The translations under genes and the position numbers were made by a program. A stretch of DNA of 64,000 nt from positions 1 through 64,000 of the forward strand of contig JABWCP010000010.1 in the NCBI GenBank assembly GCA_013360215.1, read 5' to 3'. The stretch is from a bacterium (GTDB taxonomy: Bacteria > CLD3 > SB21). The first letter of the stretch is position 1; each line of letters starts with the position of its first letter. Of the stretch, positions 18,951-21,060 are shown in pieces. Under the pieces are notes generated by a model. It worked only from the letters and a program-made list of their open reading frames with translations, had not been told where the DNA came from and did not search any database.

Positions 18951-19016
18951 AAGACACCTAAGTCATAAGACTAAAATTCTCCGTCTTCTGTAAAAAGGCA
19001 AATTTTTATTTTTTAG

Positions 19017-19054
19017 AAAAAAGAAACCCCGCGCATCTTGGAATGCCGGGGTTT
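19017..19054 (-). terminator. Intrinsic terminator closing the small minus-strand operon
   Basis: Minus strand AAACCCCG-GCATTCCAAGATGCG-CGGGGTTT followed by CTTTTTT. Confidence 0.75.
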
Positions 19055-19209
19055 ATATCTGAGGCCTTGGCAATTTGATGGACTGTCCCATAGATCCACC
19101 TATCGCCTGTGGGTAATGAGGAGCGTTATTGATTGGGCCGCTGAGGTCCTTCATTGGAGATAGGGCGCTTTTGCGGTTTTGGCGTTAACTTTGAATTTGT
19201 CGGTTTCAT
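19053..19209 (-). other. Small ORF B: 27 aa as written (19126-19209), or 51 aa ending at the terminator if one base is skipped
   Basis: AAAGGAG SD, then MKPTNSKLTPKPQKRPISNEGPQRPNQ*. The overlapping +1 frame (SALSP)MKDLSGPINNAPHYPQAIGGSMGQSIKLPRPQI* stops at 19053-19055, at the base of the terminator. Confidence 0.5.
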
Positions 19210-19395
19210 AGCCCTACTCCTTTCTCTGTTGATTTTACTTTCTCTTTACGCGGAATCTCGCGCATTGTTTCGCCGACGGGTGTATTGATCGGCATACTTT
19301 GCAAGTCAACGCGCTTCTCCCAACAATCTACATGGTAATACGATAATTGGATGTGTCCGGTATCACGTCGGTTTAATTTTTTTTTTCTTTTTCAT
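19206..19395 (-). pseudogene. Small ORF A (62 aa) interrupted by +1 nt in an A10 run
   Basis: AAGGTGAT SD, ATG at 19395, A10 at 19377-19386. With A9 it reads MKKKKKLNRRDTGHIQLSYYHVDCWEKRVDLQSMPINTPVGETMREIPRKEKVKSTEKGVGL*, and its TGA overlaps the next ATG (ATGA). Confidence 0.6.
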
Positions 19396-19429
19396 ATCCG
19401 TATCACCTTTGCTATTTGCTTTATGTATT

Positions 19430-19445
19430 AGCATAGAGTGTGCCA
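19430..19445 (-). promoter_or_regulatory. Sigma54 (-24/-12) promoter
   Basis: Minus strand TGGCAC-ACTCT-ATGCT, with the exact GG-N10-GC spacing, 35 nt before ATG 19395. Confidence 0.65.
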
Positions 19446-19538
19446 GGTATATGAAAAATTATAACAACATGTTTTTTATGAAATGCGATATGCGCTCTGC
19501 AGCAAAAAAACTGTTATAAGTCGAATATTTAATATTGC

Positions 19539-19560
19539 AGTGTAGTTTTTTCACTACACT
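19539..19560. promoter_or_regulatory. Perfect 8-bp inverted repeat, candidate enhancer (UAS) for a sigma54 activator
   Basis: AGTGTAGT-TTTTTC-ACTACACT (TGT-N12-ACA core), about 95-115 bp upstream of the sigma54 motif. Confidence 0.55.
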
Positions 19561-19630
19561 TCAAAATCAGAAACCTGAAAATTCAATCCGTATTCCGATA
19601 CGTTATATGTGCGCTCCGTCACATCATAGA

Positions 19631-20104
19631 TCAAATACGAATGGCTCTTTCTAAACTCGGTTCTAACGAAATAAAAGTCTCAGTACGCTCAACGCCTTCG
19701 ATAGTCTGAATTTTATCGTTTAGTACATCTCTGAGATGACGCGTGTCCCGGCAATAGAGTTTGGCCAAAATATTATAATTACCTGTCGTGTAGTGGAGTT
19801 CGGTTATTTCCGGAATAGCCTCAAGCTGCTTCACCACTTTTTTATACAACGAGCCTTTTTCAAGAAAAATTCCGAGAAACGCGCACAGATCATAGCCCAA
19901 CATGGACGGGTCAACACGCAGCTTAGACCCTATCACAACACCGGCTGCTTCCAATTTTCGCATTCGAACGTGTACTGTCCCGGAAGAAGTGTGAACTTTT
20001 TCAGCAATTTCTGTGTAGGGCATCTGGGCATTTTCCATCAAAAGATTTAATATCTTTCGATCCAGTTCATCAAAATCGGTAATTTTAGTGGTCTTTTCGT
20101 GCAT
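19631..20104 (-). CDS. asnC: Lrp/AsnC family transcriptional regulator, AsnC clade
   Basis: DELDRKIL..LMENA..PY.EIA....S.GTVHVR..KL, LGYD.CAFLGIFL, L..IPE..E.HYTTGNY, DKIQTIEGVERTETFISL. This matches E. coli AsnC hallmarks (HVR, YTTG, KIQTI, TET.I). Confidence 0.9.
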   Translation of the reverse strand: MHEKTTKITDFDELDRKILNLLMENAQMPYTEIAEKVHTSSGTVHVRMRKLEAAGVVIGSKLRVDPSMLGYDLCAFLGIFLEKGSLYKKVVKQLEAIPEITELHYTTGNYNILAKLYCRDTRHLRDVLNDKIQTIEGVERTETFISLEPSLERAIRI

Positions 20105-20242
20105 AATTTTACAAAAAATTAAACAAAATAATTAATTTTATACAATATATGTAATAATATTCAAATTTCAATATATTATTTGTAATAATAAATAACTTGT
20201 ATTATATTATTTACGATAATAATAGATTATTTTTGTACTTTT

Positions 20243-20248
20243 TATAAT
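20243..20248 (+). promoter_or_regulatory. -10 box (TATAAT) for the tRNA-like RNA, within an extremely AT-rich asnC-divergent region
   Basis: Perfect TATAAT 8 nt before the 5' acceptor strand. No good -35 at 17 nt spacing, consistent with activator dependence. Confidence 0.55.
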
Positions 20249-20256
20249 TCAACTAT

Positions 20257-20371
20257 TGTAGGGTGATGAAACAGGCAGCCATACCGTCCGGTCTCGACGG
20301 TGGAGAATTTGGGATAAATTCCGATTACCGGGACTAACTACTCCGTGGAGGTTCGACTCCTTCCCCTACAG
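20257..20371 (+). ncRNA. Non-canonical tRNA-like RNA (GUC anticodon, 46-nt branched variable region)
   Basis: Acceptor TGTAGGG/CCCTACA plus G73; U8-G9; D arm ATG-AAACAGGCAGC-CAT; anticodon stem CCGTC/GACGG with loop CGGTCTC; variable region closed by GGAG/CTCC; T arm GGAGG-TTCGACT-CCTTC. No encoded CCA. Confidence 0.85.
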
Positions 20372-20384
20372 CTCGTACACCACC

Positions 20385-20429
20385 ATAATAAAAAACTGTT
20401 CCGCCGGTCACGGAACAGTTTTTTATTAT
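20385..20429. terminator. Bidirectional intrinsic terminator
   Basis: ATAATAAAAAACTGTTCCG-CCGGTCA-CGGAACAGTTTTTTATTAT, between the tRNA-like RNA and the convergent gene. Confidence 0.85.
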
Positions 20430-20451
20430 TAACTTTTGGGGTTAATTAGAA

Positions 20452-21060
20452 TTAAAAAACAAGTTGTGCATGAAGAGCCAGAGTGCGTGATTTAGGGTCA
20501 TACGAGGGACTCGCTGATAATTCAAATTTTTTGTTATAATCATGGACAGATTGTGGTAAAGTAAAAATGCTATACAAAGCTCCGATCGTATAAATAATGA
20601 ACCCGCCTGTTATTTTTGCGCCGCCGTCACCTCGACTGTCATTACCTTCGTCATCAAACCAATCATCTTGAAGCGCATCCGCAACACCACTATAAAACAA
20701 AGCAGTACCAGCGGTGCGAATACCAACACCTAGAAGACCGCGCCCAAAATCTTGTGCATAAAAATTACCCATCGAAGGTCCAATTAAAAAACCGTAGCCC
20801 ACTGCAAAGCTTCCGGCCGTCTCATACGTGTCTAATTTGTTAAGTATGTATCCTCCGGCAACAACAGGTAATACGGTATGTCCGGCGCTCTATAAAAAAG
20901 CTTCTGTAGCATTTTTTTTGGAATGAAGCGATGTTTTTCTATTCATTTGTGGATACGAAGCATTCAATCCGCGTTTAATAATCACACTACGTGATGAATC
21001 TGCTGGCATAGCCCAAAGATTTAAGCCGAAAAAATAGCTGATAAAAACGATGATTTTCAT
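20452..21060 (-). pseudogene. Exported/membrane protein gene (202 codons) interrupted by one in-frame TAG at 20890-20892
   Basis: GGAG SD and ATG at 21060, signal peptide MKIIVFISYFFGLNLWA. The frame continues ...KKNATEAFL*SAGHTVLPVVAGG... into the track ORF 20452-20802. Confidence 0.75.

Follow-up and report, generated by a model that had tools for sequence, protein, structure and literature searches.

An uncatalogued family of tRNA-Leu-like RNAs with a conserved variable-arm module and a probable role outside decoding

A 64,000-nucleotide stretch of a bacterial genome (the window: GTDB lineage Bacteria; CLD3; SB21; assembly GCA_013360215.1, contig JABWCP010000010.1, positions 1 to 64,000 of the forward strand) encodes at 20257-20371, on its forward strand, a tRNA-like RNA that belongs to an uncatalogued RNA family. 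The family is absent from Rfam 15, and we found no description of it in the papers searched, although some supplementary motif table may list it. We favor the reading that the window's RNA is an intact, transcribed member of a family that descends from tRNA-Leu, works off the ribosome and was acquired by this organism along with a neighboring regulator gene. That it is a functional tRNA-like RNA with no part in decoding is very likely: the family is multi-copy, shows compensatory changes in every helix, has a purine at position 37 in none of 83 sequences and is covered by contigs from RNA libraries. These findings bear out an earlier annotation made from the letters of the window (the sequence-only reading), which had argued for selection on a non-decoding RNA rather than decay.

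Non-decoding RNAs derived from tRNAs are few, and tmRNA, the cell-wall tRNAs and the Y-RNA mimics each opened a field. The family described here is widespread, multi-copy and apparently expressed, and is unseen by standard annotation tools. It places a near-complete aspartate identity set on a leucine-type body, together with a first base pair of the kind read by amidotransferases, a non-decoding loop and a grafted arm domain; the RNA is usually paired with an amino-acid-sensing regulator, and the pair has most likely crossed a phylum boundary. If charged, the RNA would represent a new off-ribosome use of aminoacyl-RNA, and if uncharged, a new class of structured RNA built on a natural tRNA scaffold. 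Either way, the annotation of Cytophagales misses several genes per genome.

A family missed by standard finders

ARAGORN reported 0 tRNA genes in the whole 64-kb window, and Rfam 15 gave no match at gathering scores and no tRNA match at E ≤ 10 across 20150-20480, so that tRNA finders failed to call the locus normally, as the sequence-only reading had predicted. Over the family as a whole, ARAGORN called 0 of 87 sequences and no Rfam family matched either the long or the short forms. A BLAST search against 40 relatives returned nothing beyond a 27-nt match to the T arm, a covariance model built from the window sequence alone (R1) had no match in any of 14 same-family genomes or of 19 other genomes from the window's small phylum, and an exact 23-mer had 0 matches in viral contigs. 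The first lead came from public sequencing runs. One of their DNA contigs, from a different organism, matched both 20255-20296 and 20334-20373, its two matches being separated by 90 letters versus 37 in the window, and several RNA-library contigs matched 20334-20373 only.

A pattern scan that left the stems free, applied to one genome per prokaryote species, yielded 50 loci, nearly all from Cytophagales (Bacteroidota). The named genera were Pontibacter, Adhaeribacter, Botryobacter, Echinicola, Marivirga, Fulvivirga, Thermoflexibacter, Flexithrix and Marinoscillum, and further loci came from metagenome-assembled genomes (MAGs) of Cyclobacteriaceae and Catalimonadaceae and from one Chitinophagaceae MAG. 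In these 50 loci R1 found 72 full-length copies of 110-200 nt at 78-118 bits, plus one cut by the end of a locus. Over the whole family the length is 110-213 nt. Tandem arrays of three copies occur at L044, L048 and L057, and copies also stand in tandem at L063; the five pattern-scan genomes that were searched whole held 2-4 full copies each, and the genome of the window's organism, which is a member of a different, small phylum, holds one. A model of the RNA family (R2) found the RNA in 13 of 151 evenly sampled Bacteroidota genomes at E ≤ 1e-18, and a 14th genome has a copy cut by the end of a contig. Two loci lie on MAG contigs labelled Roseobacteraceae and Thalassobius (L028 and L044); they carry tandem copies with Bacteroidota-style upstream motifs and may be mis-binned, and L028 has a masked run of N inside one copy.

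Conservation and covariation of the fold

The cloverleaf drawn in the sequence-only reading, with all of its listed features, was found on inspection at the positions given there. The window copy has a 7-bp acceptor stem, a D arm, a 5-bp anticodon stem with a 7-nt loop, and a 5-bp T stem with a UUCRA loop, all on the forward strand. The acceptor 5' strand UGUAGGG (20257-20263, with U1, G2 and U3) pairs with 20364-20370, the 3' strand (20364-20372) reading CCCUACA followed by G73 (20371) and C74 (20372), so that U1 pairs with A72. The D arm (20266-20282) is of class II (tRNA-Leu) type, with a 3-bp stem AUG/CAU and a loop AAACAGGCAGC that contains A14, A15, G18 and G19. In the analogue of the anticodon arm (20284-20300), the stem CCGUC/GACGG encloses the loop C32 G33 G34 U35 C36 U37 C38 (20289-20295), in which GUC occupies 20291-20293, and the T arm (20347-20363) reads GGAGG-UUCGACU-CCUUC. 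CCA is not encoded; GCU directly follows the acceptor stem.

The single-sequence minimum free energy fold of the window copy was not better than those of shuffles (z = -0.49), so the sequence by itself is unable to decide whether the cloverleaf is real. Homologues and covariation show that the fold goes beyond chance. In a 74-row alignment, which was fitted to the model and came from a search whose pattern had fixed 22 bases of the 3' module, 99.6% of pair cells were standard, compared with 57-63% when partners were slid; compensatory change was seen in 12 of 27 pairs, and 0 of 500 shuffles reached any of these measures. An unbiased set, made up of the 15 sequences that the model by itself detected in the evenly sampled genomes, was 99.2% paired, with compensatory change in 12 of 25 pairs, including 5 of the 7 acceptor pairs. 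In this set acceptor pairs 3-7 covary, and U1-A72, G2-C71 and G73-C74 are kept in 15/15.

All family copies share the 7/5 acceptor/T geometry. Pair 10:25 covaries between A-U and U-A (28 vs 34 sequences), pair 50:64 is A-U, G-U or G-C across the family, and the anticodon stem, CCCUC/GGGGG in the consensus, shows a compensatory change to G-C in the window copy. The base at position -1 varies across the family, and the eighth acceptor pair (U-G) that had been suggested for the window copy is not conserved.

The variable arm is a conserved module of two stems, an internal loop and a variable hairpin. In the window it spans 46 nt (20301-20346) and is closed by P-V1, GGAG/CUCC (20302-20305 / 20341-20344), which is followed inward by a bulge AAUU (20306-20309), the short stem P-V1b, UGG/CUA (20310-20312 / 20338-20340), an internal loop GAUAAA / CUAA (20313-20318 / 20334-20337) and the hairpin P-V2, UUCCG/CGGGA with the loop AUUAC (20319-20333). 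Counts for this arm and for the anticodon-like loop refer to 83 unique family sequences. P-V1 is 4 bp long, GGAG/CUCC in type and covarying, with compensatory change in 3 of 4 pairs, compared with 3 of 3 in P-V2. The bulge after it is 3-5 nt, or in seven sequences an 18-nt stretch in its place, and P-V1b has 2-3 bp in the variants UAG/CUA, UGG/CUA, CGG/CCG, CAC/GUG, CGA/UCG, CAG/CUG and AAG/CUU, all three pairs forming in 55/83 and types such as CGG/CCG, CAC/GUG and CGA/UCG showing covariation. The internal loop, 5'-GAYAAA / 5'-CUAA, has CUAA in 81/83 and GAUAAA in 50/83 and presumably resembles the UAA/GAN motif of large RNAs.

Length variation is concentrated in the distal hairpin P-V2, which ranges from 4 bp to ~90 nt, the whole variable region ranging from 37 to 138 nt. 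The window copy represents the minimal form of the arm. Long forms carry in their distal arm an extra motif, ..AUAGAGCCGAC..hairpin..GGGGUUGACCAC(C/U)A..CUUUG.. (L020, L066, L069, L072-L077 and L080), which the window copy lacks. The two sub-hairpins earlier proposed for this region are replaced by the module described above: AAUUU/AAAUU can be drawn in the window copy and is unconserved, and the family has at its place the bulge, the 2-3 bp stem and the GAUAAA/CUAA loop.

Kinship to tRNA-Leu and loss of decoding features

Several comparisons indicate that the family is derived from tRNA-Leu. Within the host genome, tRNA-Leu(CAG) has the D and T arms closest to those of the window copy, and the next-best genomic matches of R2 in Cytophagales (31-57 bits, 81-86 nt) were tRNA-Leu in 7 of 8 cases tested and tRNA-Tyr in 1 of 8, which agrees with the tRNA-Leu-like D arm seen in the sequence-only reading. 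An alignment to tRNA-Leu gave the same D-loop layout and the same exit of the arm from the core. Shared with bacterial tRNA-Leu are the 7/5 architecture, the 3-bp D stem, the A14 A15 .. G18 G19.A G loop, an arm departing from the core between U and GU, the T arm GGAGGUUCGA and N73-C74 ends without CCA.

The differences from tRNA-Leu lie in the identity positions and in the arm. A73 is crucial for leucine identity in E. coli, according to the review PMC9976931, and this marker is absent from the family, which has G73 in 83/83; unlike tRNA-Leu, the RNA also has an Asp/Glu-like loop with U37 and a position 33 that is not fixed as U. The variable arm, at 37-138 nt with conserved internal loops, compares with a hairpin of ~13-15 nt in tRNA-Leu. 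All 83 family sequences end in ...ACAGC, and tRNA-Leu and tRNA-Tyr genes of Cytophagales (L093-L100) likewise have N73-C74 followed by variable non-CCA bases; this likeness of the 3' ends suggests that the RNA uses the ordinary tRNA 3'-end pathway.

The anticodon-like loop combines fixed and free positions. Position 32 is C in 73 sequences and U in 10. At position 33, U (62 sequences) outnumbers G (16) and C (5), and at position 34, G (41) is followed by A (25), C (14) and U (3); positions 35, 36 and 38 are U, C and C in all 83; and position 37 is U in 78 and C in 5. The window copy, with G33 and U37, has neither U33 nor a purine at 37, and the lack of a purine at 37 from every copy argues that the RNA is not a decoder. 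A complete set of 46 tRNAs, tRNA-Asp(GUC) among them, is already encoded in the host genome. The sequence-only reading had staked its interpretation on covariation and on conservation of GUC among homologues: the covariation is there, and GUC is found in only 41/83 sequences (13/15 in the unbiased set).

Transcription of the element

Most copies look like transcription units of their own, with a promoter-like motif and a terminator. In the window, an AT-rich shared control region of 152 bp (20105-20256) contains the TAnnTTTG motif TATTTTTG (20228-20235), 21 nt before the 5' end of the RNA. This motif, which we take to be the Bacteroidetes -7 promoter element, occurs within 60 nt upstream of 48 of 87 copies, mostly 15-19 nt from the 5' end, and 12 further copies stand behind another copy in tandem. 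Sigma-70-like matches at 20160-20208 were not much above shuffles. An intrinsic terminator hairpin with a U tract lies at 20385-20429 on the forward strand (1 site vs 0.2 expected from shuffles), and a hairpin with a T-run follows 46 of the 76 copies that have no other copy behind them.

RNA libraries contained contigs that match the element exactly. A 244-nt contig from library X18 corresponds to 20170-20413 and a 151-nt contig from library X20 to 20234-20383, each with 0 differences, and neither library showed any depth over the flanking genes within 19900-20900. Long-form members from other organisms account for six more RNA contigs (depth 2-13), the loose ends of which carry GGGUUGACCAC..UUGUAC. 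No joint skipping the variable arm was reported in any RNA run; the contigs run straight through the arm, which speaks against the earlier suggestion that part of the variable region is excised. A strain variant seen in DNA (X13) differs at five sites in 1001 bases, none of them inside the RNA.

A linked AsnC-like regulator and horizontal transfer

Across the control region, and divergent from the RNA, lies the gene for a 157-aa regulator of the AsnC subfamily (Lrp/AsnC; 19631-20104, reverse strand) with Pfam AsnC_trans_reg and HTH_24/HTH_AsnC-type domains. Among NCBIfam models it scores highest against the AsnC equivalog NF008384, with a full-length match of 167.5 bits (cut-off 227), and next against LrpA, with 84.7. 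The score is below the cut-off yet twice that of any other Lrp-family model, so we regard the protein as an AsnC-subfamily relative and do not call it an equivalog. Homologues beside the RNA in Bacteroidota loci are 49-63% identical, and in 23 of 51 loci, the window among them, the regulator stands divergent at 132-210 bp upstream of the RNA, without exception in this orientation.

In the even sample the regulator adjoins the RNA in 9 of 14 RNA-positive genomes. As first called, a homologue (E ≤ 1e-45) was present in 13/13 RNA-positive and 19/138 RNA-negative genomes; one genome (G088) was then found to be RNA-positive, its copy cut by the end of a contig, which corrects the counts to 14/14 and 18/137. 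Among the 12 best-scoring homologues, 11 come from RNA-positive genomes, and those in the 19 genomes first called RNA-negative are 42-56% identical. Where the RNA is not adjacent, the regulator homologue has no common partner, and R2 with filters off, applied to 15 of 17 loci with a regulator homologue (L103 and L107 left out for size), gave only one extra copy, the truncated one of G088. Whether the AsnC-like regulator controls transcription of the RNA is, in our judgment, evenly balanced.

The regulator and the RNA were most likely acquired jointly by horizontal transfer from a Cytophagales-like donor, since the 19 other genomes of the phylum lack the RNA and no close homologue of the regulator occurs in the 14 genomes of the window's family. 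A neighboring DDAH-like gene has orthologues in 12 of the same 14 genomes (56-67% identity), which indicates that the contig belongs to the lineage and that the regulator-RNA pair is an accessory module. Insertion boundaries were not found, and relatives do not share the gene order around the DDAH gene. The idea that the RNA is the remnant of an integration site was rejected, the window containing no second copy of the 3' module and no notable flanking direct repeats.

Aspartate identity elements and the route to asparagine

The review PMC9976931 gives G73, G34, U35, C36 and C38 as the strong determinants of aspartate identity in bacteria and adds that G10 and the pairs G1-C72 and G2-C71 also matter for bacterial tRNA-Asp. 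Measured against that account, the window copy has all five strong determinants as well as G2-C71, and across the family G73, U35, C36 and C38 are kept in 83/83 and G34 in 41/83. The loop C-N-G-U-C-N-C is common to the window copy and tRNA-Asp (CUGUCAC in the host tRNA-Asp), and the RNA departs from tRNA-Asp in U1-A72, A10, G33, U37, its class II body and the loss of G34 in about half of the family. The aspartate identity proposed in the sequence-only reading is strengthened by the five strong determinants of the window copy; G10 and G1-C72 are missing. We put forward recognition or charging by AspRS as a tentative proposal.

For SerRS, the same review lists G73, C72, G2-C71, R4-Y69, C11-G24 and a large variable region. 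The window copy has G73, G2-C71, A4-U69 and the large arm, with A72 and U11-A24 replacing C72 and C11-G24.

Amidotransferases rely on U1-A72 (PMC9976931). This marker of GatCAB is kept in 15/15 unbiased sequences, and gatB is present in the host (G000) and in 5/5 Cytophagales genomes. GlnRS was not found in 4 of 5 genomes, and the host has GatB without a GlnRS match; the presence of GatCAB is explained by the missing GlnRS, since it would be needed for Gln-tRNA anyway. AsnRS and AsnB-type synthetases occur in 6/6 genomes checked, so gene content neither demands nor rules out a GatCAB/Asn route and lends no support to a need for tRNA-dependent Asn synthesis. The class II D loop may act against GatCAB recognition. 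The gene asnA is rare, being found in 4 of 151 genomes, all without the RNA, and this number is too small to judge an anticorrelation. The host genome itself encodes four AsnB-type asparagine synthetase homologues above the family cut-off (C20, C21 and C56).

Amidation to Asn by GatCAB through U1-A72 is thus conceivable but unsupported, and we consider it improbable. It would form part of a scheme, to which we give equally little weight, in which the asparagine-sensing AsnC-like regulator turns the RNA on, an ordinary, discriminating AspRS loads it with Asp by way of G73, G34, U35, C36 and C38, and GatCAB amidates it, yielding an Asn carrier off the ribosome. In E. coli, asnC and asnA form a divergent gene pair, and in this doubtful scheme the RNA would be the counterpart of asnA in that pair; U37 and the ornate arm would, with the same low likelihood, prevent the insertion of Asn at Asp codons. 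The AspRS-GatCAB proposal fits the identity marks and the AsnC-type neighbor and is reminiscent of asnC-asnA.

Proposed mechanism and alternatives

The favored reading, that of a tRNA-Leu-derived RNA acting off the ribosome, can be set out as a series of steps. A short primary transcript would, with good probability, be matured like a tRNA through cleavage by RNase P at U1, 3' trimming near G73-C74 and CCA addition. The amino-acid-sensing AsnC-like regulator may act through the shared control region of 130-210 bp, a step on which we are evenly divided. The RNA would fold into an L shape from which the structured variable arm projects, and its U37, its unconstrained positions 33 and 34 and the size of the arm would exclude it from decoding. 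The invariant G73, G2-C71, U35, C36 and C38, with G34 in the window copy, could make it a ligand and probably a substrate of AspRS, a step that we advance with caution. Once charged, the RNA would act off the ribosome as a carrier of Asp, or as a sensor or decoy.

A number of results weigh against this proposal. G34, a strong aspartate determinant in bacteria (PMC9976931), is missing in 42/83 family sequences, and G10 and G1-C72, which that review gives for bacterial tRNA-Asp, are absent from the window copy, A10 and U1-A72 taking their place. No aminoacyl-tRNA-using enzyme of the Fem, MprF, CDPS or LanB types recurs beside the RNA gene. The X18 contig begins 87 nt upstream of U1, and the RNA contigs amount to moderate evidence of transcription, since contigs cannot give RNA ends and carry-over of DNA is possible. 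Conservation of the 3' module in the 50 loci is inflated because the search pattern fixed 22 bases there. Finally, 5 of the 14 RNA-positive genomes in the sample, and all Pontibacter loci, have no regulator beside the RNA, and the regulator's presence in 18 sampled genomes without the RNA means that the linkage may be inherited synteny rather than regulation.

The main competitor, which we judge distinctly less probable, is an RNA with a structural or regulatory task that never carries an amino acid and whose tRNA shape would serve only processing and stability. Its UCUC loop and the GAYAAA/CUAA internal loop would bind a protein or pair with target RNAs, a function we rate no higher. The top conserved features outside the tRNA framework are indeed single-stranded (UCUC in 78/83, with UCCC in the other 5, and CUAA in 81/83), long forms hold the extra conserved motif GGGUUGACCAC, no transferase gene is linked, and YrlA is reportedly a precedent for tRNA mimicry without charging. 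However, the acceptor end is fixed in sequence (U1-A72, G2-C71 and G73-C74 in 15/15), in the way that 3'-end enzymes read it; the invariant bases coincide with the aspartate identity set (PMC9976931); and the multiple copies and tandem arrays point to a stoichiometric need of the kind known for tRNAs.

A working decoder, in the form of an unusual isoacceptor for Asp (or Asp/Glu) whose variable arm is very large, would account for the full cloverleaf with intact D/T-loop tertiary partners, for the loop C-U-N-U-C-U-C, which differs from the tRNA-Asp/Glu loop at position 37 only, and for gene ends like those of the hosts' tRNA genes. It is nevertheless very unlikely. No purine occurs at 37 in any of the 83 sequences, U33 is replaced in 21/83 including the window copy, and G, A, C or U at position 34 under one acceptor identity would mix Asp and Glu codons; moreover, the host has tRNA-Asp(GUC) within its set of 46 tRNAs, and the arm reaches 138 nt.

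Still less credible is an intervening sequence in the variable region that is cut out to leave an ordinary class II tRNA. The length range of the region (37-138 nt) would suit it, and ARAGORN's intron option calls introns in 11 of 87 sequences, but these calls are mutually inconsistent in position and anticodon, the X18 and X20 contigs are colinear with the DNA, the inner arm is conserved and covaries like a functional domain, and removal would still leave U37 and variable positions 33 and 34. A decayed class II tRNA pseudogene or chance cloverleaf, which would explain the lack of calls by tRNA finders and Rfam, the single copy in the genome and the fold z of -0.49, can be dismissed given at least 72 conserved copies elsewhere with compensatory changes in every helix and odd features kept throughout, the terminator of its own and the coverage by RNA-library contigs.

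Comparison with known tRNA-like RNAs

Off-ribosome mimics of tRNA include the tRNA-like domain of tmRNA, the YrlA Y RNA, the staphylococcal non-proteinogenic tRNA-Gly and the tRNA-Other of Bacillus cereus, which have in common with the present RNA a tRNA-derived shape put to a non-decoding use and which depend on tRNA-processing enzymes. YrlA ends in a Ro-binding stem rather than an acceptor stem, and we know of no extra variable-arm domain in tmRNA, YrlA, the staphylococcal tRNA-Gly or tRNA-Other. A G3-U70 pair and a reading frame for a tag mark tmRNA, which has no anticodon arm; the window RNA has U3-A70 and no RF00023 match. The tmRNA of the host lies elsewhere (G000 C15:52491-52854, reverse strand; RF00023, 148.6 bits) and has no similarity to the window RNA; ARAGORN -m on the whole host genome did not report it. 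The idea that the loose ends of the RNA contigs were like tmRNA 3' regions was rejected, the host tmRNA being unlike the element and GGGUUGACCAC..CUUUG being situated in long-form members.

Allo-tRNAs, as portrayed by Mukai et al. (PMC5389517) and in the review PMC7609411, are non-canonical bacterial tRNA-like genes with long variable arms that are missed by standard finders; some are polycistronic and some are thought to stand outside normal translation. The present RNA shares with them, on that description, the long variable arm and the invisibility to standard finders. The same sources give allo-tRNAs 8/4 or 9/3 acceptor/T stems, in contrast to 7/5 in the RNA family, no copy of which meets any of the allo-tRNA and tRNA-Sec geometries 8/4, 9/3, 8/5 and 9/4. 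Anticodons of allo-tRNAs vary widely in those accounts, whereas U35 and C36 are fixed here, and neither an ornate internal-loop arm nor an AsnC-type neighbor is described for allo-tRNAs in the accessible parts of the two sources (PMC5389517, PMC7609411).

Further observations around the locus

Convergent with the RNA is an open reading frame (ORF) for a 116-aa Gly/Asp-rich product (20452-20802, reverse strand), with no Pfam or NCBIfam match and no homologue beside the RNA in other loci. RNA run X17 gave no contig on the window's own RNA, only on this small ORF, where the contig covers 20471-20698 exactly. Downstream of the regulator, 680 bp (18951-19630) contain no ORF of at least 60 aa and have a GC-rich hairpin, AAACCCCG..CGGGGTTT, near the start.

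In a Fulvivirga genome (G043), gatB (C66:88630-90051) lies ~9 kb from a three-copy RNA array (C66:99001-99440), which is probably a coincidence. At nine loci (L026, L027, L030, L031, L035, L048, L057, L063 and L064) a sufB-like gene (481 aa) comes after the regulator gene and points the same way, and at five of them (L026, L027, L030, L031 and L035) a sufC-like gene is also present; the suf names come from sequence reading rather than from a family search. A gene resembling AMP-dependent acyl-CoA ligases is found downstream of the RNA in eight loci.

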